Part shown: in pieces, positions 11,582 to 64,000 of the stretch | Position numbering within the stretch: position 1 is the stretch's first letter | Layout: each line of letters starts with the position of its first letter | Assembly: GCA_900768545.1 (NCBI GenBank) | Contig: CAAGDD010000003.1 | Coordinates: forward strand, 4,767 to 68,766 | DNA length: 64,000 bases | Reading direction: 5' to 3' | Source: Clostridia bacterium | Lineage (GTDB): Bacteria > Bacillota > Clostridia > Christensenellales > UBA1242 | Translations under genes and position numbers: made by a program | The notes under the pieces: model-generated | Told to the model about the DNA's origin: nothing | What the model saw: the letters and a program-made list of their open reading frames with translations, nothing else | Database searches by the model: none

Positions 11582-11600
11582 TTTTATGTAGGAGGAAAAT

Positions 11601-17105: not shown

Positions 17106-17447
17106 TTATTTGTTTGCTGTAACGACCACGTCTGCGCCGGTGTTTAACACATTTTTGATAATAACTTGACCAAATTTGGCATCTTTAAGACGCAGTTTTT
17201 CAACTTCATTTACAACATCAAAAATCATACTTTTTGGCACAGCTGCTGTGGTTTTGCAAGCCTTAACGCCTTTTTCAGTCTTGACCGAAGTGGTGACAAC
17301 TCGCTTTGGACATGTCATTTCTTCGCGTCCAAACACAGCACCGCGATTGCAGGTGTTTCCGGTCACTGTGATATTGTCGCCGTCTTTTGTCACAGTCAAA
17401 GCACAGCCAAGTGGGCACATAATGCAAATCATTTCTCTCTTTTCCAT
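17106..17447 (-). CDS. DUF1667 domain protein (third subunit of the clostridial-type glycerol-3-phosphate dehydrogenase operon)
   Basis: 113 aa. The Cys pattern CIMCPLGC...TGNTCNRG is typical of DUF1667. It is the last gene of a tightly packed three-gene operon. Confidence 0.85.
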   Translation of the reverse strand: MEKREMICIMCPLGCALTVTKDGDNITVTGNTCNRGAVFGREEMTCPKRVVTTSVKTEKGVKACKTTAAVPKSMIFDVVNEVEKLRLKDAKFGQVIIKNVLNTGADVVVTANK

Positions 17448-17456
17448 ATCTTTCTC

Positions 17457-20100: not shown

Positions 20101-20251
20101 TTCTCCTCCACTTTAATTTTAATATTTTGTCAATAATATTGTCAAATAAAACAAAAAGTTTTGTAAATTGTTTTAGAATTATTTTCTTTTGTGTTAAAAT
20201 TGAAATGAAAAGAGCTTTAGAATTTGGACTTTTAAAATTGTGAGGTTTTTT

Positions 20252-25417: not shown

Positions 25418-25455
25418 AAAAAAATAGAAAGCAAAATTTTGCTTTCTATTTTTGT
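25418..25455 (-). terminator. Rho-independent terminator of the giant gene (bidirectional shape)
   Basis: Perfect 26-nt palindrome ATAGAAAGCAAAA/TTTTGCTTTCTAT (25424-25449) flanked by A6 and T5, starting 7 nt after the stop codon. Confidence 0.75.
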
Positions 25456-25461: not shown

Positions 25462-28400
25462 TTATCTGCCCATTTTCTTGTTTTTGCTATTTTTACGCTT
25501 TGAAACGATAGCCAAAGTCATAAATGTAAGAGCGCCAACAGCCAATGCAGCGATAGCAATGATAATCCACATATATGTCTTATCAGGTTCTCTCCAAACA
25601 GCATAGAGTGTAATGCTGTCGAAGTCAACTGTAATGGTATCACCATCAAAGAATGCAACTTCTCCATCTTCACTCAATGCCCAGCCAAGGAAGATTTGTT
25701 TTCCGTTTGCAAAGTCGAGTGTAGAGAGTGTTGGAAGTTTGTAGTTTGATCCATAAGTTGTGTTTCGAGATACAGTTCTGCTCGAGCCATTGTTTGGATT
25801 GAAGATGATTGTTACAGTCTTTGCGACAACTGTTGGATTGAGTTCAAAGTCTTGTGCCTTAACTATAAGAACTTTTCCGTAGAGCAAGTCTTCAAATGTA
25901 GCTGAATTTCCTACTCTCCAGCCAAGCAAATCGTAGCCTTCTTCCAACTCAACATCGAGATTGATCTTCTTTGTGAATTTCGCTCTAAACTTGAGTTGTT
26001 CTGCAGATGTTTGTTCAAATCCATAGTCGCTGCCATAGCCAGTAACTTTGATTGACTTAATGCCGCGTGGTTGATTTACTTTGAAGTTAACCCACTTCAA
26101 TGTATAGTAAAGTCTAACAACTGTGCTGCCGTCACCAGAAACTTTGTATGCTGAATAGTTTTCAGGTTTTTCAAAATCATAACCATCAAAATCTTTGATG
26201 TATTGTTGGATATTGATGTCAGATTCTGTTGTGCCTTCTTCGGTCAAAGTCTTGTCGTTGTCGATCAAATAATCGTTTGCATCAAGGTTTTCGAAGTAGT
26301 ATTCAACTGTATAATTTGCTGTTCCAACTTCAGATTCAACGACGATTTCGATGTTTGTGGTCTTCTTGATTACGAAGCTGTAATCTTTTTCTGTGACATC
26401 TTCTCCATCAATAATCCACTTAACAAATCTGTAACCAAGTTTTTCTTCTGCGGAGATAGTGACAGTTTCGCCATAAGCGTATTGTCCTGCACCCGTTACT
26501 GCATTGATGTGGTTTGTATTGCTGATAGTGATATCAACATTGATTCTTACTCTTCTATAATAGTATTCGATCACAAGTTTTCCGTCGCCGGTAATTCTTG
26601 GTTCGTTGTTTGCATAAGTTGAGATAACTTTATATTCAGCGAATGTAAAGCCTTCAAAATCTCTGTCTTTTTCGTTTGCTGCACGGAGTTGTTCGAGTTG
26701 TTCTGCATTGAAGTATGTGTGAACTTTTCCGGTCAATACTTCATCTTGTCCAACCTTTTCATATTCTGTTTCAGATCCTGGCAAGTTTTCTTTGAAGTAT
26801 CTTACGCTGTAATTTGCGTCGCTAGCTTTGATAACGATTGTAACTTCGGTGTTGTTTTGAAGTGATGCGATCGTGTATGTTTGTCCAGAAACGCCTTCGC
26901 TTTGGGTTCTGCCACCAACAATGAATTGTTCGAGGCTAAATCCTTGACGGAGTTTGATAGAAATCTTAACTTTTTGTCCAAAGACTACTGTCCAAAGGTG
27001 TTGAACTGTTGGAGATTCTGTCAAGTTTACATCATCTGCTTCAACCTTGTATGGTTTTCCATTGTTGTTTTCAAATGGGTTGTCATAATCAAGGCCGCTT
27101 GTTTCATTTCCGTTTTCATCAACAAAGATAAGTTTCAATGTTCTTGTTTCTCTTACGAAGTAAGTGTTGATAACTGTGCTTCCGTCACCAGCGATTACTT
27201 TTGAAACAACATTGCCGTATTCATCTTTTTGATACATATCGGTTGTAGCTTTTGCGATATCAAATCCATTGATGTCAATACCACTTGCTGCTACTTTTGC
27301 AAGAACGTCGATGCTGTAATACAAGCCATCGTCTTCAACAAAGATTCTTTCATTAGATGCCTTGCATACTTCGGCTTTGTTTTCTACATCATCGAAGAAT
27401 ACATAATATGCGTCGCCGTCTTTTGTAAGAACTTTGGTGTCACCATAATAAACATTTCCGTCTTCTTTGACTTCAAATTTGTTTCCTTCAACAACTTCAC
27501 AAACAGCCTTTCTATTTTCTGCATCATTGAAGAATGCATAATAATATCCTTCGTTCTTTGTCAAGATTGTTTGAACAAACTCGGTCATAGTTTTTCCATA
27601 AGCTGTAATAGTTCTATCTTCAGTGTCCCAACCATTTCCGCTTGTCTTTTGTTTGTTTACTTTGATTGTATATTGAGTATTTTCTTTTGCTTCTGCATAA
27701 ACCTTGAGATATGTGTTCTTGTCAGGAATGTTGAATTTTACAACAAATTGTTGTTTGCCTTCTTCAACACCTTCTGTGATCTCTTCTACTGTCAAGATGT
27801 CAACGATACTTCCTTCTTCATCATAAAGCTTGAACATATCGGTTGTTGCTGCAAAGCCTTTGTTTACAACAAATGTAAATTCAACTGCTGTGCCAAACTT
27901 GAAGTCTTGAGCAACATTGAACAATGTATCTTCGAGTTTTTCGATTGCTTCAGCATGTTCTGAAATATCAATGATTGTCAAAGTATGATTATTTCTTTCA
28001 TATCTTACGATAACTTCTGTTGTTTCAGATCCAGAGATCTTGTTATTTGGATTGAATGTGACATCACGTTTATGATATCCCTTCAAAAGTTCGGCAAGGC
28101 CACTTGCGTTTTCAATTTCTGCCAATACAATATCTTCTGTCAATGTTGAATCTGTCTTTCCTTGAGCTTGGAATGTATAATCAGCATTTTCGCTGTCATA
28201 AGTTCCGTCAAGTTTTTCTTTAACGATCTTAATTGTGTATTTTGTGTTATCTTTAGCGACTGCACTTGCCAAAATTGTAATACCTTTCTTAAGTTCGTTT
28301 TCATTTTCAGCACCAAACATCTTAATTGTGTTTACATTGATTGTTGCGCCTGCAAAGCTGTTTTCAGTCGAAACTGTGAAGCTTGCATCTTTGTAACCTG

Positions 28401-31400
28401 CTTTTTCAGAAGCGGTAAGAGTGATAGTGTCTTCATATCTAATCAAATATGTGTTTGTTTCGCCTTCAACAAGTTTGTGTGTGTGTGTTGAAGTTGAAAC
28501 TGTTACGCTGTCGATATTGTCAGCGATCACAAGTTTAAGTTTGTAACTTTGTCTTGCCATATAAACTCTAACGATTGACAAACCATCTGCTGTGATTGTA
28601 GTAGATTCGTCTTTCTTGTTTTCGTCAAATGCAAAACCTTTCAAATCAAGAGCCAAGATGTGAGAGAGATTTGAAACATACGCTTGATAGCTTGTAACTG
28701 TATCACCAGTCCTTGCTTCGATCAAACTAATGTCGTCATATCTTCCTGTTCCTTCGACTTCTGAATAATTGCCGTCCAAAGTTTCGTAAACAACTCTGAT
28801 TGTATAAGTTGTAACGCCTTCACCCCATTTAGCGAAGATGTCAACATTTCCGCCGTCTGTTGTAAGAAGGTTTCTTACAATTCTAATATCAGTTTGTTCT
28901 CCGTCCTTGAAGTAATACCAACCAACAAAGTCATAACCTGTCTTCTTTGTCCAACCTTCAACACTGGTTATTGCGGTAGGCAATTCGAGTCTGTCATTGT
29001 ATTTGATTGTTTGATATTGTTTTTCAAGATAGTAGCCGTCAGCTTTCTTTGACAAGATCTTTGTATTGTCATAATACAAGCCGTCGTCTTTTGTTTCGAG
29101 AACTTCGTTTGTTGAAATATCACAAACTTTTACTGTGTCGTAATAATATCCGTCAGCTTCTTTTGAAAGAACCACGTTGCCATTATAAGCAATTCCGCTT
29201 ACGGTCAAGGTAAATTCAATTCCGTCAGCATAATCGCAAACTTTGTCATAAACCAAAGTAATGGTGTAAGAGATTTCTTCCCAGTAAGCAAATACTTCTG
29301 CTTCGCCACTTGCGTTTGTTTCCAAGTTTTTAGCGTAATATTTGCCGTCTGCCTTGCAGTAATACAATCCTGCTTCGGCAATGTCACTGACATTTTCTAC
29401 TTCTGCAATTTGCAAGCTGTCAGATTTGAGTGACCAAGATACAAGTTTGTAACCTATTCTTGTGAATGTCAATCCAGCAAGTTCAGTTACTTTGTTGAAG
29501 CTTGAATCTGTGTTTTCAATACTTCCTTCACCACCATTTGGATTGTATTTGATTGTGTAAGGTTTTGCTTCCCAAACACCATACAAGTCAATGTTATGAG
29601 TTTCGCTCATTGTGAAGTTTTCATTGATTGCATATTCTGCTATTTCAGCATCTTCGCTTCTTGCCCAACCAAGAAGTTTATATCCTGTTTCAGAGAATGT
29701 TACGTCAAACATTCTTGTTTCTGTGTAGAAGTATGTTCTGTCTTGTGTTTCTGTGCTGCCGTTCAAGTTTTTGTGGAATGTGAGTGTATAGCTCTTTGGA
29801 GCTGTTACAATCTCAACAAGCACATTGCTTGTAGGCATTGTGAATGTGTAATAGTTATTTTCGTCGGCAGTAAGATCAGTCTTGATTTCGCCCGCTGTGA
29901 TTGAAACAGAACTGATTTCATAGCCTTCTGCGATTGCAAATTTTACTTTAACAGTCGCTGTGTAAAGGATATTGTATTTTTCTTTGTCAACAACTGCTTT
30001 TGTTTCTTCAACTATTCCGCCATTTGGCAAAATTGAGTAAACAATTTCAGCACCTGTGACGCCGTCAATAGCAACATCTTTCTTTCCTTCTTCGTCTTCA
30101 ACTTCTTTTGTCAAAGCGACTGACAAGTCAAAGCCGACCAAGTCAAATTTAGCGTTGAATACACTATTTCCGTCAGCAGCAATGATAAGTGCGTCTTCAT
30201 CAAATGTTGCTTTTGCATAACCACTGATGTCAACACCTTCAAATTGATTCAAAGTAGCGTTTACTTTGTTGATATCGATTTGAGCGTTTGTTGTGCCAGT
30301 GAAGTCTTTGCTTCCAAGGGCTTGATATGTTCCGTCAATCTTTTGGATTCTGTAATTTACAACATATTTTGTATTGTCCGCTTCTTTCCATTTTGCTGTG
30401 GCTGTCAAGTTTTCGAAGCCTTCAAATGTGAATGATGCGTGATCTGTGTATGTTTGATCACCGATAGTCCAATATTCAAGAACATAACCAATCTTCTTAA
30501 ATCTGTTCGCTTCAAGGTTCTTGGTTTCGCCATGGATCCAGTTTTGAGTATACTCTGTTATGCCGTCATCAGTAACTCCGTCATTGCCCACGAATGTAAT
30601 TGTGTAGATGATGTCAGTTGCAGTAAATTCGATTGATGTTGCTTTTGTAGGCATATCAAACTTAACTGTTTGTGCACTTTCATCCAAGTTAAGAGTTACG
30701 TTATTGTTTGAAGTTTCTCTGCAAGCTGTAAACTTGAAGCCGTCTTTCATTGAATAAGCAAGATTTACTGTCGCGCCAAATTTAACAGTTCCAGTGATTC
30801 TTCCAGATACAGTCATGTCAAGTGCTGCATTATCGCTGCCAGTTGCGGCTGCTTTGTCAACGCTTGCAGTAACTGATGAGAATTTGTTTGCATCAAATGT
30901 TACATTGAAGTCGAACCATTGTCTATCATAATATACTTCCAATGTTGCACCGTCTTTTGTCATAACTTGACTCAAAACGCTCTTGTCATTGTTTAAGATA
31001 TAATTTTCGATAGATTGTGGAGTTGTGGTAACTGTGTCTGTGATATGAGCAGTGTTTGCGCTATCAGTGTCAACAAGTTCATAGCTTCCGTCAACTTTTT
31101 CATGGTAGTATTTAATGCTATAAGTGATGTCGATTGCTTGCCATACTGCCCACAAATCAATGTCGTTTGCAGTCATATAAACCGCTTCAGCTGTTGGCAA
31201 GTTTTCTGCTTTATACAATTCTTCAACAAGACCTTGATCAGCATTTTGTTTATCAAGAGCCCAGCCAATGAATTTGTATCCGTCTTTTGTCCAATTTGCA
31301 TCAATATCTTTGATTTGATACATATCTTTTGCAAAGACTTTTGATTCAGAAGATGTTGTTGTATCTTCATCATCAACATTTCTGTGATATGTGATTGTAT

Positions 31401-34400
31401 AAGTCTTTGGAGCAGATTGTGCTGTGATTTCAATTGCGTAATATGGCATTGCGGCAATCTTGTATGAATTGTCGTTTTCATCAAAGACAAATCCGAACAA
31501 TTTATTATCACCAAGATAGAAGCCGTCTGCTTTAAGAGTAAGATCACCAAGCAATTGTCTTGTTCTTGCATAATAGCCGTCGTTTTGCTTTGTCAAAACT
31601 GCATAGCCGTTGTAATACAAGCCGTCTACTTTTGTGGTGTCAAATGTAGCACCTTCAACCACGTCGCAAACTTCCAAGTCGCCAGCATAATATTTTCCGT
31701 CAACGATTGAAAGAATCTTAACGCTTCCATAATATACATCGCCATTTTCTTTCACTGTGAATACGTTTTCTTCAACATAATCACAAACTTTTGAGTTTGC
31801 AGTGAAGTCTTTTGAGCCTTCAACTTTGTATGCTCTTGCTGTGAAGCCTGTTGACATATATCCTTCTTTCAAAGTCAAGCGAACTTTGAATGGGATTTGA
31901 TAATAGATACGATATTCTTTTCCGTCTTTTGTTGTCATTGTCGAGAATGAGTTTTCAACGCCGTCATCTTCAGGAACAAAGCTTACTGCTCCGTTTGATT
32001 CGTCGCTGCGAAGTGTCAAACCATAGTGCAATCTGTTGTATCTAATTTCAACAGTTGAATATGGATCTTCTTCTGTGCCTTTATGCCAGCCGATAACAAC
32101 TCCGCCAGTGAATGATGCAAATGCATATCCTGGGAATGTTTTGATCAAGTTGTTTGCAATCAAGAATTCATAATCAACAACTGTGTCAGTTGTGGTCTTG
32201 AACAACTCGATAGTTGACTTATAGTTTTCTTTATAATATTCGTCATATTCTGGTAAAGAATATTTAACAGCGTATGTTGTGTCATTTCTTTCGCTTGCTG
32301 TAAGTTTGATTGTTGATTTTTCAGAGAAAGTAAATTCACAATATGTTTCACCGTCTGCAGTAACAGCTTGCACATCAGCAAATTCGCCGTCACCAAGTTT
32401 GAGTTTGAAGCCTTCGAAGTCATAGCCGTTTGCTACAACGCTCTTAACTTCTTGGCCGTCTTTGTAGATAGCATATACTCTAATCTTGCTGCCGTAAGAT
32501 ACTGGCAATGATTGAGCATATCCTTGAACTTTTCCGTCAATTTCAATCTTGACGCTTGTGATATCAAGGCCTCTGTCACCTTCAAATGAAAGTGAGTATT
32601 GTTCTGGGCACCATACTGCATAGAGATCAACATTCTCGCTGTAATTTTCTTCCATGATATAAGTATCATTGTCATGATATTTAACACTTTCGGTGTTGTT
32701 GTCGCCAACTGCTGAAAGAGCCCAACCTTGGAAGATGTAATCACTTCTTGTGAATGTGTTTTTGTCAAGTTTTGTTGACTTCTTGTATGTCGCCGTTTGA
32801 GTCTTTGTTTCTGTCGAGCCAGCAAAGTTTGCATGGAATGTAATTGTATATTCTTGTGCAACGCTTTGTGCTGTAACTGAAACATTTTCAACAGCAGGCA
32901 TTGTAAATTCACCATTAGTGATGTTTGCTTTGTCACAAGCGTAACCGACAAATTTGAATCCATTGTCTGAAATTGTGTATGAGAGTTTTACAACAGTTTC
33001 AAATCTTACTTGATAACTTCCTTCGCCCAAAGACTTGATGTAGAATTCTGCGTTGCCTTCTTTTGTAAGATCAGTTGATGCTACAAAGTCAGCAATTCCT
33101 TGTTCTGCAACCAATGAAAGGTTGAAGTATTTTCTTGTGTAAGTGATTTCAATCTTTGTTGTTCCGTTTGCGTCGATTTTCTTGAGAACGATATTGTCGT
33201 TTCTGTCAAATCCGTCTGTTGTTGGATATTCACCGGCTGTCAACGCTTTGATCATCTCTTCAGTGATGTCAGTGTCGGTTATTCCTGTTCCAACTTTTGT
33301 ATCTTCGACTTTCATTGTTCCGTCGAGTTGTTCATAGATGTAGTCAACACTATATTTTGTGTCATCTTTTGCTTTCCATTGAGCAAACAATTCGCTATCA
33401 GCCAAGATGTCAACTGTTGAAGTTTCAGCCAAAACTTCTCCGCTTCTATTGAATGACCAACCCAAGAATGTGTAGCCCGCTCTTGCTGCTGGAGCAATAA
33501 GACCAACAACAGTTTCGCTGTTTTCTGCGTCAACAACGAATGCGTTTTGATATGTGTCAGCATATCTAACTTTTACGCTAGCATATTCAAGACTTGTTTC
33601 ACCAGTAGAATCTGCCGCTTTGTTGAGATTGAATGTAAGAGTGTAAACATTTGCTGTGTAAAGAACATTTACAACAACATCTGTCGCACCCATTGTTCCT
33701 TCAACAACTTCTTGTGCTTTGTCTTTGATAGTGTATCCTGCCACTTCTGGAGTCTTAACGCTATATGTTTGACCATATTCAACTGAAGCGGTGTAAGAAT
33801 TGTGAAGTTCTTTTTCGTCAACAGACTTATATGTGATTGTCAAATTGTAAGAGTTTGTTCTCCAACGAGCAGTGATAGATACGTTGCCGTATTTTCCTGC
33901 ACCAATAACAACGCTTCCGTCTTCTGCGAAGTCGATTGTTGTTTTTGTCCAATTTCCAATTTCTGGAATTGTCAAAACTTCATAACCTACAAATGTGTGA
34001 CCTTCTTTTGTGATTTGAGTCTTTGTAGGCAATGTGATTGAGTCTTCGATAGTAAATTCTTTTCTATAGAATGTTACCATTTCGTGCAAGTCATTTTCTT
34101 CTGTAACTTGTTTCCAGTCACTAATAGTTTCATCAAGTTTTCCACCATCAAGAGCAAGGTCAACATGATATACGTTTGCTTTCCAGATAGCATAGAGTGT
34201 GATTGTGTCACCGTCAGTTGCTGTCAAGTTTCTAACTTCTGTCAAATCTTTTACAAGGTTAGCATACATAACATCTTCACCACCAACTCTTTCAACGCTA
34301 GCACCTTCGAAGAAGTTTGCTACATATTTGCCGTCAGCCAACGCTGCGCTTGTTGCCCAACCAACAAAACTGTAACCGGTCTTTTCAAATGTGTTTTGAG

Positions 34401-37400: not shown

Positions 37401-40400
37401 CAGTTCCGCCGTTTGAGTTGTAAACAACTTTATATTGATTTGCTTTTGAACTTGCAACAAATGTCAAGCTGTCAACAACATTATAAACAAATTTGATTCC
37501 GTTTTCGTCATAAGTTGTTTCGCCTTGTGTCCACTTGTCGAAGTAGTAGCCAGTCTTTGCAGTTGCGGTCAAAGTGATTGTTTCGCCAAATACAACAGCA
37601 TAAGTATTGTCTTGTCCTTCAATTTTGTTTGCACCAGCAACTTCAATATCTGTGTGAACATCGCCTTCAACTGTAAAGGTGATTGTGTCTGTTTCCCAAG
37701 TTGCAACGAGTGTTACTTCGGCTGCATTTTGAGAAGCAAGATTCATAAACTTAACTGCGTCATTTCCATTGATATACAAGCCGTCAGCAGTTACATTTTG
37801 GTCAGCACTTGTTGTGCCCCATTTTGCAGTGCTATAATCACCGTCAACAACTTTCCAGCCTTTAAATGTGTGTCCAAGTTTTGTTGGAGCAGCAACATCA
37901 AATGCTGTGTCAAATGTAGCTGTGGTGTCAGCCATTGTGTTTCCACCATCAGTGTTATATTTAACTTTGTATGTGATAGCATTCCAGATTGCAGTGATTG
38001 TGTCGTTTCCAACAGCAACAGTATAAGTTTGATTTTCTTCATCCAAATTTCCGTGGAAGTTTTCAGATTTTGTCCAACCACCGAATGTATATCCAACTCT
38101 TGTGAGTGTTGGCAACGAAATCTTTGTTCCATAGTTTTGAGTGATTGTTTCACTAGTCTCGCTAGAATCAGCTTTCTTTCCGCCATTGTAGATGATTGTC
38201 AATGTGTAAGAATCGATTTCTGCGTTTGCTGTGATAGCAACATCTTTGATAAGCATTGTAAGAGTAGTAGTCATGTCAGCAAGTTGTGCACTTGTGTAAT
38301 CTGCGCATGTGTAACCCTTCCAAGAATATCCTGTCATAAGTGTGCTTGCAACTTTAAATTCAGCTCCGTGATACAATACATATTCAACGCCCGCTTCCAC
38401 AGTTGTGCCGGCGAGAGTTGTTTCGCCAAGAGCAACAACAACACTTTCAATTCCGTCAGTCTTTGAAACAGTCAATTTGTATGTGTTTCTTGTAAAGTAA
38501 AGCTTAATTTCAGTTGTTCCAACGCCATTTTCGTCAACTTTAACAACCTTGTCTTGTGCTGCAAGATTTGTCCTTTTAGCATCAAATGTAAAGCCAAGTT
38601 TTGAATATGTTGCACCCTTTCCTTCAAGAACAACTTTTGTGTTGTCTCTTGTATCGAAGGTCAATGTTTCACTTGTTACACCGTCGCCACGATTGTCAGT
38701 AAGAGTTTGTGCGTTGTCATAAGATCCGTCAACACCTGCGAAGATAGTTGTGATCTTATAGTCAATTCCGCTGTTTGCAGTCCATTTAGCATAAACATCA
38801 ATGTTTGCATTGTCAACGTCTGTCAAGTTTTGAACTTTTTGTCCGTCAGTATACAAAATTGTGTCGCTATCTTTTTCTGTCCAGCCAGCGAATGTATAAC
38901 CTATTTTTGCAAATGTGTTTGCATCGAGTGCTGTTTCAACTCCATAGGTCAATGTTTGAACATGAGTTTCTTCTGCACTTGCATCAGGATAATTTGAGTG
39001 GAATGTGATTGTGTAAGTGTGAACTTTCCATTGTGCATAGAATATTGCATCACCAGCATAAATCCATTTTCCTTCGCTATCTGTGTAAGTGATAGAACCA
39101 TTTGTCAAGTTTTTAGCAAGTTTCTTGTCAAGTCCAATTGCAAGAGTGTCACCATCTGCAGATGTGAACCAACCTTTGAATGTGTGACCCTTTCTTTCTG
39201 GAGCAGTAAGGTCAGCAAATTCGCTTGTTGTGTTGAAGACAACTGAAAGTTCAGCTGTGCCTTCGGTGTCTGCATGGTTTTGATCAAGAGTGATCTTGTA
39301 AGTAACTGGGGTCCAGTTTGCAGTCAACTTAATGTCACCATAAGCATGAGCATTCAATACAAGGTCGCCAGCGTTTACTGTCAATGTGCTTTGAACAGTT
39401 TGATCGCAATGAGCATTGTCTGCCCAAGCAGCTGTCCAACCAGCAAATGTGTATCCAACTTTTGATGGATCAGTAAATCTAACTGTTTGTGAAGCCATGT
39501 CAGTGATATAAGTCGTCTTATAATCATTTCCGTCAAGAACAAATCCTTCTGGAACATTAGCATAAGATCCGCCATTCAAGTCACAAACGATGTTGTTTGT
39601 AATTCCTGTGAAGTGCAAATATACATAATATGCATCTGAATTTGCAACTGCTGGCATATTGAATGCTATATCAGCAAATGTTGTTGCTTCTGTTAAATCA
39701 AATCCGAAAGCATATCCAGCATAAGTATATCCAGCATAGAGTTTCAAATCAGAGATTGTGACTTGAGCATCATAATCAATCTTTGGATCAGTATCAAATG
39801 AGCAATAATCGTTGATATCTTTGAATGTTCCAACGCCTTCGATAGTGAGTGTGAATTTATTTACAAGAGTATTTCCACTCAAACCTTTATTGAAGTATCC
39901 ACCGATATCCAATTGATATTGATTTCTTGTGTAGAAGTATTCAACAACGGCATTTCCGTCAGCACTTACAACAACTTGTTGTGCAACAGGTGCTGTAAAT
40001 CCGTCGTAGCTCAAAAGTTGTGCAGTAACTGTTGAGTCTGTTTCGCCGTAGTATTCTTTTGTATCTTTGAGCGTGCAGTTTTCTGTTGTCAAAGCACCAT
40101 CTACGCCAATATTTTCAAGATAATATTTAACTGTGTATTTTGTTCCTGCATTCTTTGTCCAATAACCGAACAATTTTGTTGAATTGTCAGCTGTGACAAA
40201 GTCTGTTGAAGAGATAACTTTGTTTGCATCAACTGCGTCTTCGCCGATAGCATAAGCAGCAGTATAGAAGCCAACAAATGTGTAACCATCTCTTGTGATT
40301 GCTTTTTCAAGATTTGCAAATGAAATGCTTTCTGATCCTGAAACTGATTTGTAAAGTGTTGCGAATGTGCTGTCATAGATCGCATACAATGTAGCTTTTC

Positions 40401-43400: not shown

Positions 43401-46400
43401 TAACGCCACCCTTTTCAATAGTCCAGCCAGTAAATTTATAACCAGCTTTTGCTGTTGCGGTCAAAGTAACATTGACATTATACATAACATTGTATGTCTT
43501 TGTTGTTTCGTCGTATTTGAATCTGTAAGCAGCATATTGATCGTCTGATTTAGCACTATAAGTGTCAATTCCAACGTCGCCGCTGAGATTCAATTTGTAA
43601 GATACACGCTTGTAATAGAACTTAATAACAAGGCTTCCATCACCTTCAATCTTCATTCCTGTAAGATTTGAATTTTCGCTTGTTGAGCCAGTTTCATAAG
43701 AAACCCAGTCAAGTTCGAAACCTGCATATTTAACTGCTTGCAAGTCTGCGATAGATGGAGTTGTGTCTGTTTCACCAGCTTTTTCTCCGCTGTGAACAGT
43801 GACTGTCCATTCGTCGAAGTTGTTATCTTGAACATAAGCTGTTTTTTCATCAGCTGCTGTTCTGCCCATATTAAGCATATATTGAAGTCTATATTTTGTA
43901 TCTGTATTTGCGTCAGCTGTTGCGGTCAAAGCCAAGCTTTCGGTAGGCATTGAAGCAACAACATCATTTTCGCCATCTTTTGTCACTTCGGCAGTGCCAG
44001 AAGATACAGTCCAAGTAATATTGCTATAGCCTTTCTTCAAAACAGCGTTCAAAGTGATCTTCGCACCAAACTTAACAAGTCCGCTTGTTACAGCGCCAGA
44101 AACTGTGTTGCTGTTTGATGTGAATGTAACGCTTTCAATGCCCTTGCCTACGGTCAAAGTAACATTGTAAGACAAGCGTTTGTAATAGATTTCAACGATC
44201 AAACTGCCGTTTCCGTCAACAGTGAGAGAGCCATTGTTTGCGGTGACAATTTCAGTTGTGTCTTCGATTGTTCTAATAGTCTTGTAAGAAACATATTCAA
44301 AGCCAGCCTTTGCTTCTTTCAAAGCGTCAAGGCTAAGGTCAGAATCAGTCAAAGCTGTTCCGTTTGAATTTGTGCTTTCACAAGTGTATTCATCGTTTTC
44401 GATGTTTTGTCTATATTGTTTAACAGTGTATTTTACATAATCCGCTTCTGCGTTTGCGATAAGAGAAACACCCTTTGTCGCGATTGGCATTGTGAATGTG
44501 TAAACACTTCCAGCAGTAACCGCTGTTGGAGCAACAGCTGTGTAACCTTCTGCGTTTGCCCAAGCTTTAAACTTGTAGCCCGCTTTGAGAGTTACGTTTA
44601 ATGTAACAGTTGCTTCATATTTAACAGTATAGGTTCCGTTTGCGTTTTTAACAACAACATCATTTGCAGGAATTTCGGTTGCGTTTACATCTTTCACACC
44701 TTTTTCGCCTTTTGTCAAGGTCAATGTGTAAGATTGTCTATTATAGAATGTGTAGATGCTTGTGATGGCTTCTGCACCTTCAGCAACGGCGTGAACGATA
44801 TCTCCGTCATATTCGTGAGCGAAGTAATCATATCCAGCAAAATCAGTTTTTGCCAAATAGTTTGCAACATTGTCTTCAACGAGAGCGTTGTTGTAAGATC
44901 CGATTTCGTGAACAGTGTAAGTTTTGCCTTCATAGTTTACTTTGCTATTCTTTGCAGGAGCAATATAAACTTTGTTGCCTTTTGTGATTGTGTTTGCTGC
45001 ATTTGCATCAAAAGTAAGATCTTCCCACAAATAATAAAGAGTGTATGGGGTATCGTTTCTTCCAATCCAAGTAGCATAAACAGTGATTGATCCGTTTGCT
45101 TTAAGATCAGTGCCATAATATGTTTTTGCAGTTGTAATCATGTCGTCAGTAACGATATATGAAGCTCTGACTGTGTCAACATCACAAAGTCCTGTCAAGT
45201 CGTTTTGTTTGTTGTTCAAAGATCCGTCGTCGTTTCTGTAAACATAAACATATTTAGTTTCTTTTCCTTCTGCACCTTTCAAGAAGATGTAGGTCTTGTT
45301 GTCAGCGGTTTGTTTTGCTTCGATTGCAGAAACAACAGAAGCAAATTGTGCGTCTGACAAGTCTGCGATTTCGTCAAGTCCAAGATATGCTTTTGCATAA
45401 ACTGTCAAAGCGAGAGCGCGATAGTTTTTGCTTGTTGACCAGCCGTCGAAGTAATATCCATCAAGTTTTGGTTGTGGCCAATAGCCGTCTTGACCGAATT
45501 TTTGGTCAAAGTAAACAGTCTTTGTTGCATTGTCAACATCATCTCTTTGTGGAATTGTTGGAGTGTTTTCACCAGGTTGAGAAGACTTAACATCAAACTT
45601 AACTGTGTAAGCGTTTGCTGTCCAAGTTGTGCTCAATGTGATTTCTGCACCTGTTGAGATGTTGTAAACGTAATAAGTACCAGTGCTCTTGATTACGTAA
45701 ATTCCAGCAGCGGTGATTTGATCGATGCTTGTGATTGTTTGAAGAACATAATTTTCATTTGCCCAGCCTGTGAATGTGTAGCCTTCCAAAGTGAAGACAT
45801 TTGCATTCAAAGCAGTCTTTTGAGCGTAAGTAATAGTTTGTGTGCCCATCGTGCCAACGACTTCTGTTGAAGCCCCAGCAGGTTTAACACCGCTGAATTT
45901 AACAACATATTCATTTGCGCTCCAGATAGCATACAAAGTGATTGTGTCGCCGTTTTTTGTTGTCAAGTTTCTTGCAGTTTTGTCGAAAGTTCCGTCAGCC
46001 TTAACAACATAGTCAGCAACAGTTGCATCTTTGCTCTTTGCCCAGCCGGCAAATGTGTAGCCAGCCAAAGTGAAGCCGTTTTTAGCAAGAGTAACATCTG
46101 TGTCATAAACTGCGCTTGTGCTTGCAGTTGTGCCAGTAGGTTTTCCTACGATAGCAGCGCCGTTTGTGCTTGTTGTGCTTTCGCCACTATATTCAATAGT
46201 GTAATCGTTTGCAACCCAGTTGATGTAGATCTTAATAGTAACATTGCCATTTTCAAAGTCTGTCAAAACGCCAGCCATTTGAGCGATTTGAATAGTTGTA
46301 TAAACAACTGAATCATCAAATGTAGCTTCATTTGCGGTCTTGTAAGCACTTGTTCTAACAGTATGATATCCAACTGGTGGAGTAATTCTGTCATCTGTGC

Positions 46401-49400: not shown

Positions 49401-52400
49401 AATACAAGTTGATTTCGGTTGTGCCGTCGGCTGAAACATAAACTTTTGAGTCAGTTGTGATTCCGGTCAATGTTTGCGCTTCGCCACCGAGAACAAATTT
49501 TGCGTTTGATTTTGCAGCGTTGTAAGTGAAGCCAGTGTATGCATAATGTCCAAGTTCTGGAGTGTTGCCCGCGCCAGAAACTGCGATGTTAATGTAAGGA
49601 TTTGTGGCAGTGATAGCAAGAAGTGCATCAGATGTGCCAGTGCGAGAATAGCTAAACGCTGTCTTCGCTTCATACTCGCCATTAACATTCATTTGATATA
49701 CGTTTACTTTGTAAGCAGTGCTTGAGTTTGCTTCCCAATGAGCAAACAAAGTGTGATTTGTCCAAACAGAAACAACAGTGTCTTCATTTACAACCGTTCC
49801 ATTTGTCTTGTCTGTAAACCACCCTGCGAAAGTGTAGCCTGTGCGCTCTGCTGTTGGTAATGTGCCGTAAGCTGCGTCCATTGTAACAGTCTTTGAAGCG
49901 TCACCGATGACAGATCCGCCGTTAGGGTCAAAAGTAACTGTCATTGTGAGAGGTTCGAAGATTGCGTAAAGGTGCAAGTCGCCAACTTCGCTATAAGTAT
50001 ATTGTTTGTCCGCTTCAAATTCAGCAGTTTTTGCTGTGCAGTCGCGGTTCCAGCCCAAGAACTTGTATCCGTCTTTATAGAAAGTTCCGCTTGTGCCAAG
50101 TGGCAAAGTCTTGAAGCTTGATGTGTAAGTAACAGTTTGGTCAAAGCCTTGGTCATAATTTGGAGATTTTACAACCGAGCCATAACCTGTGGCTGTCGAA
50201 GCATTAAATGAACCGTTTAAAACAGTGCCATAAGTGCTTGAATTTGATGTATAAGTAACCTTGTATAAGTTTGGAGTTGCGATAGCATACAAAGTTGTGT
50301 CCGCAGTAACTGAAGCAATTTTGTAAGAAAGTTCTGTTGAAACCGCAGTTCCAGTGCCTTCTGCATTGCTATACCAACCCTTAAATGAGTAGCCCGCTTT
50401 GAGAGTAGCAACGAAGGTAGCTGGGTATTTTTCATAAAGCACTCTTGATACTTTATTATTGTTTGCATTCGTTGTGTAAGCAGTATCAATTCCAGTGCCA
50501 GCAACAGCAGAAACATTCATCCATTCAAATACGGTTATAGAAATTCCACCGTTTTCAGTTGCTTTCCAAGCATTGTAAGTATAAGAATCGTTGAAGAATG
50601 TTATGTAAGTGCTTGTGATTGCATTATAAATATCTCCATAATACATTCTATTTGCGTTTGTTCTCTTAACAGAAACAACGATTTCAGTATTTGGATCATA
50701 ATCGTGATACAAATATCCATCTTCTTTTTTGCTCAAAACCAATTTTTCAACGGTTTCGCCAGCACTGTTTTTCAAAGTGCCGACATTTGTTGTGATTTCA
50801 AGGTTTGTCGAGTTAAGCATATTGCTGATGCTACTATATCTAATAACAAATCTATATGTCACGATCTTCCATTGAGCTTGAAGGGTTACATTTCCGAACA
50901 TTCCCAAAAGTTCTTTGGTCGCGTTATTTTCATCGAGTGGGTTTGCGTAAACTGTGCCAACAGTCCAGTTTCCGTCGGTCGATGCAACCTTCCAACCAGC
51001 GAAGTCATAACCAGTCTTTGTGGCTGTCAAGAGTTTTCCGCCCGCAGATAAAGTTCCGTCAGCGGTCGCTGAGGCATTTCCCAAAATATTGTATCTAACT
51101 GGCGAATTTGCAGCCAAGGTTTCGCCGTCCTTGAGATCATAAGTGATCGTGTAAGCATTTTCAGTCCACTTTGCGAAAAGTGTGTGAGTGCTTGAATTTG
51201 TAACAATTGTGTCTTTTATAACTACCTTTGTCAACGCTTCGTCGCTATACCAGTTTTCGAATGAATAACCGCCGCGAGTAGGTGTAGGCAAAGTGCCATA
51301 GGCTTTGTTGAAGATCACATTCATAAATGTTGGATCAACTTCGCCGCCCCTTGGATCAAAGTTTACAGTAACATTGTTTGCTGTGTAATAAGCGTAGAGA
51401 GTGATTCCACCGATCGCTTCAGTGCCAACAACTGTGCTTTCGAGATATCTCTTTGCACCAGTAGTTGAAGCGTCTGGAGCGAGTTTTTTGTCATACCAGC
51501 CAGCGAATGAGTAACCTGTGCGCGCTGCAACTGGCAATGTGCCATAGGTCGCGTCAAATGTAACACTCTTGCTATCGGTGTCGCAAGTTCCTTCGTTCGC
51601 GTCGAAGGTTACGTCGTAAGTATTAGCGTTCCAAGTAGCTTTCAATGTTGCGTTTTTGTAAATGTCAGTATGCAAGTCAACATCGAATGAGCCGTCTGCT
51701 TTAATGTATAATTCATCAGCAGAGCCGCCGCAAGTTCCGTCACCATAATAACGAACGAATGTATATCCTGTAAGTTCTGGCATATCAATCTTTGTGATTT
51801 GATTTGCGCATTCTTCATCAGTATAGTATTTTTCAATACCAAATTGATAATAGATAGCAGTTGTGCCAGCCTTTGTTGCGTTTTTAACAAGAGTGCCGTT
51901 TTTGTAAAGCGCGCTGTCAAGAGTGATTGTGATTACATTTGAAGTAAACTTTGCATACAAAGTTGTGTTTGCGGTCGCTGTATAGTTCCACTTGTAGGTA
52001 GCGTCGTTTGAAACGAGAGTTGTCAAGCTTTCATCGCTATACCAGCCACCGAATGTGTAACCACTCTTTGCAGTTGCTCTAACGGTCGCGTCAGTCTTGT
52101 AAGTAACGCTCATAGAAGCATCAGTGCCAGTTGTGCCAACATAAGCCAAACCACCACTTGTGCTTTGTGTGCCATTTGTTATAGCCACAGTTTTGAGAGT
52201 GTAAGCGTTTGGAGTTGCTCTTGCGATAACAATCATATCGTCAGTAGCATTTCCATAAGCGTAAGTATAAACATTTCCACTAACGGTCACTTTCGCGTTG
52301 TCGCGAGCAGCAAGCAATGTTTCGCCGCTAGTTCCAACGAGATAGAATCCGTCAAATGTGTATCCCGCTTCAACAGTCGCCTTGAAGGTGAGAGTTGAAC

Positions 52401-55400
52401 CGTAATAATATGTGCCATTTGTTTTATCTTTCCAATCTATTTCATTGTAATGTGCGTCGAACACATGTTTTGAAATACCAGTAGAAACGCGAGATTCAAA
52501 TGTGAGATATTCCAATGTTTGGAAGTCTATTGAAATATTTCCAGTTGGAGCCCAATCCGCATAAGTCTTCATGTTTGTTTCAAATCCATTGCAAACCCAA
52601 TCGGTGTCGGTAGAAGTCTTATAATAAGATGCGATATAATAATCTCTTCCGTTTGGATTTGAATCAGATTTTGCATTAACAGCAGTTGCTGTGATAGAAA
52701 TCTTCATATCTGGATCATAAGTTTGAGTAACAGTGCAAGATTCACCAGCTGAAAGTTCTACGCGAGTCATAACAGTTCCGTTTTTGTCTTTCAAACTGCC
52801 GCCACCAGTAATTTCGATAGCGAGTTTTGTTGCACGATTTACCATTGCATTTCTGTATTTGATTGTTGCTGTATAAGTGTTGATCTCCCAATCAGCGTAA
52901 ATCTTCATTGAAGCGTTGCCGTCTTCGAGCGCTTCCAAAACCCCGCCCAAACGAGCAAGCTCGATGATTGAGTAAGAAGTGTTTGCGTCGATTTCAGTTC
53001 CATTGCCATCTGCTTGAGTATTGTATTTGCCTTTGAATGAGTATCCAGTAGGTGGTGTAACGCGTGTTGCGTCCATATCAGACAAACCATATTGACTCAA
53101 TGAAAGTGTGTAATTGTAAATATTTGAGTAAGAAGGTGTAGTCGCTGGATCTGTAGGATTTGTAAATCCAACATCATTTCCGTCGATTGCAGTTCCGCCG
53201 TTGAGCATATAATCAACTGTGAGAGTGTTTTCAGTGAATTTAGCATTCCAAGTTTGTGGTTTTGATGTGTCATAAACTTGAGTTGCTCCACCATTTCTGC
53301 TTGGCAAAACGCCATATCCGTCAGCCCATTGAGTAAATGTGTAGCCAAGTCTTTGATATTTTGTTGCTGAAAGCATTGTAAATGTGTCAGAGTAATCAAC
53401 ACTTGTTGTTGATTCTGCACACCAAGTAGAACCCATTGTAAGAAGAATGTAAGATCCTTTATAATCTGTGTAGTTCAACAATTTTGTAGTTCCGTTTGAG
53501 TGAGTTGTGATTGAGAATGTTCCGCCATCAACAATATCGAACATCTTTGTTTCGCCACTATAAATGCTATTACCTTGACGCTTCATTACCTTGATATTGT
53601 TGTAATACAAGCCGTCTGCCTTAATTTCAAATGTTGCGTCTTCAACATAGTCGCATATAGCGAAGTAGTAGCAAAGCAAGTAAGAATGTTTATCAAAGTA
53701 AACCTTAAATACGCTTGAGTCGTCTGGGTTTACCTTTCCAGAAACAGTTGATTTTGCTGCAACAAAGTCATATCCAGCCATTATCGTGTCAGCGCCGCCG
53801 AGAGTAATTGTGCTGTCAGCTTTTGCTTGACGAGTCGATTTGCTTGAAAGTTTGTATGAGCCAGTCTTATCCGCTTCTTCGATATAAGTTTCAACGATGT
53901 AATTTACATCGATTGCTTCCCAAGTAGCGGTCAAAGTAACTGTCGCGCCGTTTGTTGGAGTAAGGTTTTTAAACCAAGTGCCGTTTTCGCTGAATGCGCA
54001 AGCGCTTGTTGTAACTGCAGAGTCGCAGTTTTCGGTTGTTCCGCACTTTGCAGTGCTGCCATTGTAGCTGGTCACTGTCCAACCAGTAAATTTGTAACCT
54101 GTGCGAGTAGGAACAGATACATTGAATGCCTTGTCATAAGTAGCGCTTGTTGGAACATTTGCTCCAGCTTTTCCGCCAGCATAATCATAAGCAATCTTAT
54201 ATGTGTTTGCCACCCAGTTTGCGGTCAAAGTTTCGTTGTTTGCGCCAAATGTGTAAACAAACTTGCCGTTTCCGCTGTTGTAAAGAGCAGCAACATCAGC
54301 AGCCGATGCACAAGCATTTTCAATCAAAACGCGTTTGATCTTGCCGTTGAAGAGTTGGTCATATTCTCCAATTCCTGCTTGATAAGGGCTGTTCATTCCA
54401 AGGAACACTCCGTGAGTATCAATGAATGAACTACTTTCATTTTTAATTTGTTTGTTGATATTTTCGGTCTTGTTTTTCAAAATGCCATCAACATATCCGC
54501 TTGCTGTCATTCCGTCAAAAGTGAATGTAAACATGTGCCAGCCAGCAGTGAGATCTGTTGTTTTACCCATTGAAACATAGCTGTATCCAGAGTTTTCAAC
54601 CAACATATAAGCAAATTGAACATCGGTTGAAATAATTTCAAGTTGCCAGCCGCCGACGTTTGCACAAGAAATAACCGCTTCGCCATCACTTGCAACACTT
54701 GTCCAGTCTGCTTTGTAAGCCCAAACATTTACTGTGATAAAGTCAGTAAACTTATATTCACTTGCTTCACCAAGCATAGCTTTTCCAGCATTATAATTTG
54801 ACATCCATGTCGCTTGTGTTCCGTCAAGAGTTACTTCGTCATAGATTCCGCCATAACTCTTTGAAGCACTCCAGCCTTTGAAAGTGTATCCTGTGCGTGT
54901 TGGGTCAGGGATTTCGACGCTTGAACCAACAGTTCCTTGAACAGGGCTTGTGCCGCTATAAGTTCCGCCATTTGGATCGATTGTCAAAGTTGACTTTCCA
55001 GCGTTCCATTGAGCGGTCAAAGTTACGTCACCATACATTCCAGCAAGTTTTGTTCCAGCAGCATATTCTTTGTCTTGTGTCCAATTTCCTGCCACTGTTG
55101 TCGCTTTCCAAGCTTTGAATGTATAACCAGCCTTGACAGGTGTGCCAAGTGAAGCGGTGCTTGTGATGTAATAAGATGTTGGGGTCATTGTTGATGTGCC
55201 CGCGTCAACATATTTGATTGTATAAGGGTTTGCTTCCCAAACTGCATACAAAACAACTTCTTTGTCTTGAACATTTGCCAAGTTTGTAACTTGTGCGCCG
55301 TCTGTGTAAGCCACAGCACCAGCTGAAGTTGTAGCCCAACCTTTGAAGGTGTAGCCAGGTCTTGTGAAGCCGATTTCAGCGATTGTTTTCAAGTTTGCTG

Positions 55401-58400: not shown

Positions 58401-61400
58401 TTTGTGTGCTTGGATAGTCGTAAGCATTGATACAAATAGCGCCGTCAGTATATTTTGTTACGTCGCCAACGGTGTGTGTCCAAACGAGAGTTTGCCATTC
58501 GCCGTTTGTTGCCAAAATGCCCCATGATTCGTTTCCGCCGTTTGACCAAAGCCCGATACCAGAATTTGCCGCACCAGCCGCACGCTTAACTCTTGCGATA
58601 GCGACATAAGTTGTGTTTGATTCGAGCTTTCCACCCAAGTCGAACACATAGAATGGATATCCAGTCACGTTTGTCAAGTTTGGACGATAGTTTTTGACCA
58701 TATTGCCTTGCCAGCCCGCGAAAGTATATCCGCCGCGTGTAGGTGTGAGCAATGTGCCATAACTAGAGCCATAAGTGAGTGATTTTGTATAAGTTCCGTT
58801 TGAGCCAGCTGTCCAGCCGTTTGAAGCTGACATTGAGCCGCCGTTTGGATTGAGAGTGACTGTTGAAGTCTTTGGTGTCCATTTTGCAGTCAAAGTAACA
58901 TTGCCATAGAAGCTACCTTTTGTGATCAATGCGTTGTAGTTCATTGTTGAGTCATTTACCCAACCGCTGCCCGCAGTTGCATTTGAAACATCCCAACCAG
59001 CCATATTGTAACCATATCTTGTCGCAACAGCCTTTTGATCGAGAGTGAATGTTGCAGTTTCGATAGTGTAAGACACAACAACATCAGCCGACGCGCCATT
59101 GATAGACCCATTGTTTGGCTTGAATGTAATCTTTGATGAGTTTACAGTCCATTGAGCATAGAGAGTGATTTCGCCGCTTGTGAGCAAGTTTTTGATTGTA
59201 GAGCCGCCCGCAATGCAAGTGTTGTCACTTGTTTTTGAGTAAGATGCACCGCTATACAAACCGCTCAAGCCACCAGCCGCTGCTGTAGCCCATCCTTTGA
59301 ATGTGTAGCCACCTCTTGTGAATGTGTTTGCACGAAGTGTAGTCGAAACGTCAAATGTGCAACTTGTTTCTGCCATTGTGCCAGAACCGCCATTTGCGTT
59401 GTATTTAATAGTATAAGAGTTTGCACCCCAAATAGCGTAAAGTGTAACGCTTGCGCCATTTGTTGTAGAAAGATCTTTTGTCAAAGTTGCATAAGCCGCA
59501 CTTGCAGCCGCGCTGCTGTTTTCATTCCAGCCTTTGAATGTGTAACCAGCTTTTGAAAGACCTTTGCCGTCGTTCAAAGTCAAGTTTGTTCCATAAGTTT
59601 TTGTAGCGTTTGCGATATCAGAACCGCTGCCGCCATTTTTATTGTAAACGATTGTATATGTAATTGGTGTCCATTGTGCGGTCAAAGTTACATTTCCGCC
59701 TTTTGCAGACGCCAAGTTTTTGAAGTAAACCAAGCTTGTGCCGTTTACACACAATGTCGAAGATGAGATCGCTGTGCTTGCTGTGCTTGTTGTTCCCCAT
59801 TTTGCTGTGCTGTAGTCAGCGTTTGTTCCGCTCAACTTCCAGCCAGTGAAGATGCCGCCAACTTTTGTTGGAGCCGCAACAGAGAATGTAGCGTCGTAAG
59901 TTGCGCTTTTCACTTCTGTCCAGTTTGCTGCTTTTGTGCCGCCGTTGTAATCATAAGCGATATTGTAAGTGTTTGCGCCCCATTCAGCATACAAAGTGAT
60001 TGTGTCGCCATTTTTTGTTGTCAAATCAGTCGAAAGTGTCGCACCAGCATTGTAATGTGTGCCAGAGCCGTTTGCTGCTGTGTTCCAACCATTGAATGTG
60101 TAACCAGTTTTTGCAAGACTTCCAGTGTTTGAATGCAATGTCAAAGCTGTTGCATAAGTCTTTGTTTGGTTTGCAGGAACTTCGCCGCTTGTGTTTCCAT
60201 TTCCGTTGTAACTGATTGTATATGTAATAGGGTTCCAAATTGCAGTTGCTGTGTGATTGTCTGCGATTTTTACAATTGTAGATTCAGGGATAACTCTTTG
60301 TTGAACTGTGTATTTTTGAACCTTATACATAGATACATCATTCGAACCATAACTTACATCGATAAAGCCATATTCTCCAGAGTAGCCAATGCCATCTGGC
60401 ATAACATAATCTTTAACAATTAACAATTTTCCACCAGAAACAGTTTTGATTGTATATTGACTGCTTGTCAAGAGAATGTCGCAGACATCAATTTCAACAA
60501 GTTCTGTCGAGCCTGTGAACAATACTTGGAAGTTGATAACATCTCCAGCATTGAATGCATATTTTGTGTAACCACTTGGGTCATTTGAGAATCTTGCACC
60601 ATTGGTGCTCAAACTCATAACACTATATTCAACATTTCTTTCTTCCAATCTCCAATATTGGAAAAGATATCCAGTTTTTGAAACGCTTGGCATTGTGCCA
60701 TAAACAGCGTCATAAGTAACTGCCTTTGTTGCTTTTCCGTTTGTGATTGTCCAACCTGTGGTCGCAGAAAGAGTTCCGCCGTTAGGGTCTGCGGTTAAAG
60801 TGTATGTTTTTTGTGTAAATTTTGCTTGATAGTTTTGTGTTGTGCTAGAATTTTTCAAAATTGTTGATTCAGTGATTTTTGAGTTTTCGTTTGACAAAGA
60901 TTCATACCAACCTTCAAAAATTCTTCCAACCGCAACTACTGTTGGCAATGTGCCAAATGCGCTATCATATTTAATTTGTTTTGTTGCTTTTGTTTTTGTT
61001 GAGTCAAGAACCCAATCTGTTGCATTCGAATTGTCGATTATACCATAAGATGTATTCAATGTGATACTATAAGCAGTTGCCGACCATCTTGCCCACAATG
61101 TTTGAGCACCAGTTTTGTTCCAAATATGATTGCTTGCGCCGCTCTTGTTGTAATATTGTGTTCCACCAGTTGTTTCATTAGTGTCAAAATATCCATCAAA
61201 TTCGTAACCTTCTCTTGTAGGGATAGTAACAGTTGGCATAGCCGCGTCATAAGTTGCAGTTACCGTGCCCGCAACAGTTGTGTCGCTGCTGCTGTAGTTT
61301 CTCATAAGAGTAACAGTTGACTTTTGTGCTTCCCAATGAGCGTAGAGAGTTCTTGCGCCAACATAATCCAAAACGGTTGAGTCCAAGATTTGTGTTCCAC

Positions 61401-64000: not shown

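Follow-up and report, generated by a model that had tools for sequence, protein, structure and literature searches.

Ebh of Staphylococcus aureus is a surface protein of ~10,000 amino acids (aa) whose repeats are alpha-helical FIVAR/GA bundles; it has an N-terminal export signal, a rod of tandem domains and a single C-terminal membrane-spanning segment with a charged tail, and it carries no sortase motif. The Mub proteins of Lactobacillus are anchored through an LPXTG motif, are ~3,000 aa long and consist of near-identical repeats. The beta-grasp fold has been described for the InlB B-repeat of Listeria (PMC8900821), and the related Pfam family Flg_new (PF09479, the Listeria-Bacteroides repeat) has been counted among the stalk domains of fibrillar adhesins (bioRxiv 10.1101/2021.12.07.471604). 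Clostridia of mammalian gut metagenomes encode Listeria-Bacteroides-repeat proteins of 10,000-30,000 aa (West-Roberts et al. 2023, bioRxiv 10.1101/2023.11.21.568195), and larger bacterial proteins have been documented: a Chlorobi episymbiont has one of 36,805 aa, and those of Omnitrophota reach 85,804 aa. The present report concerns a stretch of 64,000 nucleotides from a Clostridia bacterium (GenBank assembly GCA_900768545.1, contig CAAGDD010000003.1, positions 4,767 to 68,766 of the forward strand), hereafter the window, in which most of one gene for a 13,649-aa protein, hereafter the giant gene and the giant protein, is found on the minus strand. The reading that is favoured, with a probability of roughly 0.7, is that of a functional chromosomal gene of an uncultured human-gut Clostridia species encoding a ~1.49-MDa cell-surface fibre, exported by the Sec route, held by a stop-transfer anchor and serving as a fibrillar adhesin or tether.

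With the gut proteins of West-Roberts et al. the giant protein has in common the class Clostridia, the mammalian gut, the repeat family, the size range and a suggested adhesive role, and it thus belongs to a known but uncharacterised kind. Those proteins were treated in one paragraph, without architecture, anchoring, synteny or evolutionary analysis, and the YG-repeat, dockerin and leucine-rich repeat (LRR) domains listed for them are not found by Pfam in the giant protein. What is added here are the complete gene boundaries, the topology signals, a module census with the fold of the modules, an orphan head, and an analysis of synteny and selection. The Omnitrophota giants are likewise single giant open reading frames (ORFs) known from metagenomes, and for them too a part in interactions at the cell surface has been proposed; in contrast, numerous transmembrane regions and divergent SecA DEAD domains are found in them, whereas the giant protein has two terminal hydrophobic segments and essentially two module types, and a SecA DEAD-like domain is absent from Pfam scans of the window protein, its odd segments and the head. 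The overall logic of Ebh is shared, but the modules are of the beta-grasp type, the protein is ~35% longer and sequence homology is absent; FIVAR/GA modules were not found, Pfam recovering only Flg_new, Flg_new_2 and MucBP and the modelled modules being all-beta. The original prediction had stressed the rarity of such a gene and its size above the ~10,000-aa Ebh class; the size holds, and the novelty was put too high, given the 36,805- and 85,804-aa proteins and the relatives already documented in gut Clostridia. The stalk family, the fold and the head-stalk-anchor order are those of Flg_new-stalk fibrillar adhesins and of the Listeria InlB B-repeat (2Y5P), from which the giant protein differs in its ~100 modules with 22 additional MucBP-like ones, in a transmembrane-helix anchor in place of LPXTG or GW modules, and in its orphan head. 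Tandem beta-grasp modules of the Mub/MucBP type, on a Gram-positive gut bacterium, are also a feature of Lactobacillus Mub and Lactococcus YwfG; unlike Mub, the giant protein has no LPXTG and its module identity averages 23%.

Extent and integrity of the giant gene

The frame is open over positions 25465-63999 of the minus strand, that is, over 12,845 sense codons, and is closed by a TAA at 25462-25464. The other five frames contain 293-1,057 stops each over the same 38.5 kb, which excludes a chance origin of the open frame, and codon-position GC is coherent in each 3-kb tile. The first in-frame start within the window is a GTG at 63981, and the frame runs on to the window edge. A search of the first 1,000 window residues against 1.84 billion representative proteins retrieved a protein of 1,459 aa (P0005), whose residues 805-1459 are window residues 1-655. 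Its contig (L087; NCBI GCA_902462765.1, CABQCY010000047.1) matches the window at 100% over a 1,968-bp overlap and holds the first 804 codons of the gene, past the window edge. On this contig the 5' end has a GAGGAG ribosome-binding site followed by an ATG; an in-frame stop precedes the ATG by 57 nt, and a TTGACT-17-TATAAT promoter-like site lies upstream. Together, the 804 and 12,845 codons give a full protein of 13,649 aa (~1.49 MDa) from 40,950 bp, which is the length of the product called independently on an ENA contig (L003) 100% identical to the window. An exact 60-mer at the window edge found no match in genome contigs or JGI metagenome contigs. At the other end, a hairpin with a T-run lies 10-40 nt past the stop. 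The features concerned, in window coordinates, are:

25462-63999, minus strand: giant gene, codons 805-13,649 and the TAA; 12,845 open codons, with 100% DNA identity to L087 over 1,968 bp
25420-25453, no strand assigned: intrinsic terminator of the giant gene, palindromic hairpin AGAAAGCAAAATTTTGCTTTCT with A-run and T-run flanks; one site found against 0.1 expected in shuffles
24213-25349, minus strand: diaminopimelate (DAP) dehydrogenase-like oxidoreductase, the downstream neighbour, outside the system and used as a synteny marker

The original prediction had been made from the window letters alone, and here it stood in full: a single uninterrupted giant frame, a GTG at 63981 that is in frame and not the beginning, a true start with a signal-like N terminus further upstream, and a real terminator behind the gene.

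Some side observations can be added on the two strands of this region. The intergenic region 5' of the giant gene (L087 1865-2650) is unusually long, at 786 bp. It contains 12 promoter-like sites, where 4.0 would be expected, and the best of these is separated from the start codon by a small terminator-like hairpin (L087 2482-2498); the region may be a regulatory leader. Inside the giant gene, an antisense open frame of 338 codons is present (window 37450-38463, plus strand), most likely a by-product of skewed, Thr-rich codon usage, and one of the antisense frames is interrupted by only 293 stops over 12,846 codons.

The giant gene was found, through its downstream neighbour, in five independent ENA assemblies, and in each of them it adjoins that same neighbour. 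Of the five, two match the window exactly and the other three come from strains that are 98.6-99.0% identical to it. The called products have 13,649, 13,828, 13,831 and 13,840 aa, the fifth being cut by the contig end. Over the last 3,296 codons the frame is undisrupted in the three strains, with a ratio of nonsynonymous to synonymous substitution rates (dN/dS) of 0.17-0.22. No exact DNA repeat within the gene is longer than 25 bp, so there is nothing in it for an assembler to collapse or mis-join, and internal DNA matches reach at best 74% identity, over ~200-260 bp, in agreement with the earlier claim that the modules have diverged at the DNA level. By the same figures, and with a mean module identity of 23% at the aa level, the gene lacks the near-identical DNA repeats of periscope-type proteins, which vary in repeat number.

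A mis-assembled concatenation of several repeat-protein genes, or a decaying pseudogene open only in this assembly, would be an alternative account of the frame. Public short-read metagenome-assembled genomes do break inside the giant gene (L087 ends at 7,039 bp, and L006 begins at the 3' end of the gene), and the middle 27 kb rests on product lengths called in other assemblies. Against it stand the five independent assemblies, made with different assemblers, that call a product of 13,649-13,840 aa, the 25-bp limit on exact repeats, dN/dS values of ~0.2 within and between species, the coherent codon-position composition over all 38.5 kb, and the frame of at least 6,357 codons that is open at this locus in the sister species UMGS1447. 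This account is thus very improbable; the giant gene is a single, real and intact gene and not an assembly artefact. As a side observation, product length varies within the species: the 13,649 aa of L003 compare with 13,828, 13,831 and 13,840 aa in L001, L002 and L004, a difference of about two modules that is located outside the readable 3' 9.9 kb.

Modules, termini and head of the protein

Pfam Flg_new was detected in three tiles of the window protein with E = 6e-170, 5e-91 and 1e-67 (552, 299 and 225 bits against a cutoff of 27), in a total of 46 stretches. Flg_new_2 (PF18998) was found in seven stretches, and MucBP (PF06458) gave two weak matches. A census of the full protein by hidden Markov models derived from the protein itself (self-HMMs) counted 101 Flg_new-type modules, with a median of 95 aa, and 22 MucBP-like modules, the latter mostly in the C-terminal half. 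The ~123 detected modules account for 82% of the 13,649 aa, and the remaining 18% includes a 277-aa N-terminal region; on these sequence grounds, the total may be put at about 125-145. Pairwise module identity has a mean of 23% and a maximum of 65% and does not depend on distance along the chain, which rules out a recent history of tandem duplication; the modules are ancient copies. The principal features of the chain, with residues counted from the window edge unless stated otherwise, are:

Residues 278-13,610 in full-length numbering: module chain, almost gap-free
51145-51627, minus strand: representative Flg_new di-module (two consecutive modules), window residues 4125-4285, used for structure prediction
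43564-43896, minus strand: example of a MucBP-like module, window residues 6702-6812, with a self-HMM consensus ...GFTF...ISGDGSTVIEVYYTRNSYTL and weak Pfam MucBP matches
31570-31794, minus strand: two copies of a 36-aa Cys repeat, window residues 10736-10810, self-HMM, no Pfam family
54295-54537, minus strand: Laminin_G_3-like insert within a module, Pfam score 18 bits (cutoff 27.6), E = 0.0033
61891-62301, minus strand: orphan segment of 137 aa, window residues 567-703, no module or family match

From a structural perspective, the AlphaFold2 model of the di-module, built on a multiple sequence alignment of 22 internal di-modules that are 21-37% identical to the first, is all-beta, with a predicted local distance difference test (pLDDT) of 90.8 and a predicted template modelling score (pTM) of 0.80. 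Its Foldseek matches in the PDB include the InlB B-repeat 2y5p (TM 0.71-0.74; root-mean-square deviation, rmsd, 3.3-3.8 over 77-78 columns), the InlB392 structures, Lactococcus YwfG and Mub repeats, as well as the Flg_new domain of the Treponema denticola sialidase (10qf, rmsd 2.5). The model thus indicates that the Flg_new modules share the beta-grasp fold of the InlB B-repeat.

The 36-aa repeat occurs in six copies on four islands (window residues 3446-3480, 10736-10810, 11585-11657 and 12164-12199), each recovered by its self-HMM with E = 1e-17 to 1e-21. It is hairpin-like, with a conserved Cys and two YY motifs (VCDxVEGxxFxxKEDGxxYYGNxKVLxKxxDGYY; consensus DKVCDYVEGATFEVKEDGILYYGNVKVLKKQDDGYY). 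The 'DG.YY' pattern resembles the YG/cell-wall-binding hairpins, but identification with choline-binding or YG repeats was dropped because Pfam gives no CW_binding match, and the element is treated as an undescribed 36-aa repeat. The Laminin_G_3 (PF13385) insert is not claimed as a concanavalin-A-like lectin either, its Pfam score being sub-threshold and its PDB sequence match absent. Several orphan segments lie within the chain. Pfam scans found no CBM family in the giant protein, no cohesin or dockerin, the modules of scaffoldins, in the whole window protein, the odd segments and the head, and no SLH domain in the window protein and odd segments.

On the modules, the original prediction thus proved right in its Listeria-Bacteroides family and in the existence of the repeat chain, and slightly high in its count of ~150. 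Among the families that it had listed for searching, PF09479 and PF18998 were recovered, PF06458 weakly, PF13385 at a sub-threshold E = 0.003 and CBM families not at all.

A side observation concerns composition, which changes along the chain. Second-codon-position GC falls steadily from 0.52 at the N-terminal, distal side to 0.33 at the membrane-proximal side, with distal modules rich in Thr, Ala, Gly and Ser and proximal modules more charged.

In the 13,649 aa only two segments exceed 1.6 on the Kyte-Doolittle scale, and these are at the extreme N and C termini. The terminal features, in full-length residue numbering, are:

Residues 1-31: N-terminal signal-like segment, MNNLKQK and a 23-residue hydrophobic stretch, a putative Sec-type signal or signal anchor
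Residues ~32-277 (~280 aa): all-beta head, with ~25-residue repeats (VTFTNCRF, FTFQNCVI, IYFNDCLF, VYFDHAW)
25504-25572, minus strand: C-terminal transmembrane helix MWIIIAIAALAVGALTFMTLAIV, residues 13,614-13,636, predicted stop-transfer anchor, with an equivalent in L088, L089 and L090
25465-25503, minus strand: basic tail SKRKNSKNKKMGR, residues 13,637-13,649, predicted to be cytoplasmic, with K/R-rich tails conserved in orthologues

A lipoprotein signal is unlikely, as the ...LAGIC... context fails to fit a lipobox on inspection. The expression LP.[TSA]G, representing the LPXTG sorting motif, matches nowhere in the 13,649 aa. In terms of the fibrillar adhesins as delimited by Monzon and Bateman, the giant protein has a long stalk of tandem domains (~123 modules) and is anchored at one end by the C-terminal helix and basic tail, this being a membrane anchor and not a wall anchor. 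The head-stalk-anchor architecture fits the fibrillar adhesin class.

For the single-sequence AlphaFold2 model of the head Foldseek found nothing significant, and its top weak matches all have a parallel beta-helix (a Klebsiella capsule lyase, the Hbp passenger, a pectin methylesterase, pertactin and a phage depolymerase); without a significant match, the beta-helix idea is a lead and not a result. If it were correct, the tip might be a polysaccharide lyase or depolymerase held far from the cell, the fibre acting as a tethered degradative tool. The ~25-residue repeats of the head, the short strands that its model shows with the same period and the kind of matches obtained are consistent with such an enzyme. 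Opposed to it, all the beta-helix matches have E >= 0.07 and come from a model with a pLDDT of 44.5, no Pfam Beta_helix, Pectate_lyase or other family is found at E <= 1, and the database search returned no homologue of the head. A tip enzyme is therefore quite improbable, and the reading as an adhesin or tether is preferred.

Distribution, evolution and proposed function

With the DAP-dehydrogenase-like neighbour as synteny probe, 80 related loci were collected. In the three closest ones (L088, L089 and L090), which represent three sister species and where the neighbour protein is 88, 87 and 78% identical, an open Flg_new frame fills the entire 10 kb upstream and ends in a transmembrane helix with a K/R tail. 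At all 34 of the more distant loci with enough upstream sequence (neighbour at most 74% identical), ordinary genes and no giant gene occupy the site. L089 overlaps at 100% identity with L069, from UMGS1447, an uncultured Clostridiales GTDB representative, and together the two show that the open frame in this species extends over 6,357 codons or more. In their tails the orthologues follow the window protein colinearly, at 27-37% aa identity, compared with 78-88% for the neighbour. Between L088 and L089 the identity is 71% with 10 gap columns, and dN/dS is 0.21, against 0.05 in the neighbour gene. From synteny, low identity and dN/dS it follows that the giant gene is a clade-restricted, fast-evolving and selectively maintained surface component; rapid divergence between sister species under purifying selection suggests an exposed surface and evolution driven by the host, phages or partners.

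The first 400 window residues retrieved from GTDB genomes generic Flg_new proteins of many phyla, at no more than 46% identity (mostly no more than 41%), and no close orthologue; L069, which was among these generic loci, later proved to be part of the giant gene of the sister species. The best 150 database relatives have 759-6,841 aa. A homologue search with the C-terminal 1,000 aa gave four weak matches and no full-length orthologues, from which the searched protein index appears to be without giant products.

The mechanism that is proposed would begin with the N-terminal signal-like segment (MNNLKQK and the hydrophobic stretch), which would target the chain to the general Sec translocon. The chain would be threaded from N to C, the beta-grasp modules folding one at a time outside the membrane, until transfer is stopped by the C-terminal hydrophobic helix, which would anchor the protein in the membrane with the basic tail on the cytoplasmic side, in agreement with the positive-inside rule. 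In this way a beads-on-a-string stalk of ~125-145 modules would arise, 101 of them of the Flg_new/InlB-B-repeat type and 22 MucBP-like, with a few odd inserts. At an estimated 3.5-4 nm per module, this stalk would hold the N-terminal head ~0.4-0.6 um from the cell, where the head, perhaps together with modules, may bind its ligand, for which host mucus or glycans, food particles and other microbes are candidates. The Sec route, the extended geometry, adhesion and the ligand are what we infer in this scheme; what the data show is an intact gene, the identity and the fold of its modules, the topology signals, purifying selection and a synteny restricted to the lineage.

Several points weigh against it. 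An uncleaved N-terminal anchor would tether both ends of the protein and give a loop, not a fibre, and the fibre length of 0.4-0.6 um rests on the assumed rise per module. The head has no Pfam family at E <= 1, no PDB sequence match and no database homologue, and its model is poor; since no adhesive domain is recognisable, 'adhesin' is a conditional name. In the other assemblies the base-by-base view covers the 3' 9.9 kb and the 5' 4.4 kb, the middle being represented by called product lengths only, and the case for the giant protein as a whole rests on DNA sequence and gene calls. The original prediction of a membrane-anchored fibre or adhesin is accordingly kept for the single C-terminal helix with its basic tail and for the stalk, and its adhesin part is retained in this conditional sense.

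The same evidence may be read differently, with the protein as a structural coat or spacer and not a specific adhesin. The modules themselves would then be the functional units, with no special tip, and many copies of the fibre would form a brush- or S-layer-like outer zone that spaces cells, shields them against phage or immune factors, or serves as a polysaccharide-binding scaffold. A tip without a recognised adhesive domain agrees with this, as does the fast evolution (27-37% aa identity against 78-88% in the neighbour), which is typical of exposed antigenic surfaces. Moreover, glycans could be bound over the length of the stalk by the MucBP-like modules and the 36-aa YY repeats, which are dispersed along it, and Flg_new domains are also accessory in glycosidases, as the match to the T. 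denticola sialidase illustrates. Yet a distinct, non-repeat head of ~280 aa stands exactly at the membrane-distal end, the canonical position of the adhesive domain in fibrillar adhesins, and Pfam detects none of the cohesin, dockerin, SLH or CBM families. A coat or spacer is thus considered rather unlikely, and the fibrillar adhesin or tether is retained. Within the latter reading, it is tentatively proposed that the head is an undescribed binding or catalytic domain, possibly a beta-helix, and that the 1.5-MDa fibre works as a long-range, species-specific tether whose particular partner might be host mucus, another microbe or a dietary particle; this more specific version is possible and somewhat doubtful.

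Genomic surroundings and significance

Both flanks of the giant gene are ordinary chromosomal genes. Upstream, on L087, there are a dUTPase and a ZIP transporter. Downstream, the DAP-dehydrogenase-like gene is followed by dTMP kinase, YhhN, a hydrolase, GlpK and a glycerol-3-phosphate oxidase, and further by SufBC-like genes, ABC transporters, glycosyltransferases, UvrC and two tRNAs. Neither flank, in the window or on L087, shows genes for a secretion system, a sortase or a chaperone; the earlier statement that dedicated export partners are missing, made from the downstream side, therefore extends to the upstream side. As for the organism, UvrC homologues at 76-77% identity are labelled 'Clostridia bacterium' and 'Candidatus Caccovivens sp.' (Bacillota; Clostridia), and many related contigs carry the label human gut metagenome.

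Three further observations concern the rest of the window. A glycerol-utilisation cluster (17106-20100, minus strand, and 20240-21706, plus strand), composed of GlpK, a GlpO/GlpA-like FAD oxidase, a Pyr_redox_2 protein and a DUF1667 protein, lies 4 kb from the giant gene and is conserved alongside it in all strains. An ORF of 791 aa (3143-5518, minus strand), adjoining tRNA-Met and housekeeping genes, has no Pfam match and in NCBIfam matches Mycoplasma membrane families of integrative conjugative elements and conjugal transfer (MMCAP2_0566, 121 bits with a cutoff of 90; Mbov_0396, 70.5 with a cutoff of 70); it may be a remnant or a component of an integrative conjugative element. Finally, an open frame of 446 codons (1-1338, minus strand), cut off by the start of the window, has no match in Pfam.

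If expressed, the giant protein would be among the largest proteins of any human-gut bacterium, with one gene taking up 41 kb of chromosome, and a half-micrometre tether would shape the attachment of an uncultured Clostridia lineage in the gut. With one signal, one anchor and no accessory genes nearby, it offers a clean case for the export and folding of a megadalton protein and, if the species-specific tether reading is true, a tractable natural test of the general Sec pathway on a substrate of 13.6 thousand residues without dedicated helpers. For the Flg_new family, the ~100 internally diverged modules constitute a natural deep alignment, which has already yielded a predicted module structure of high confidence.

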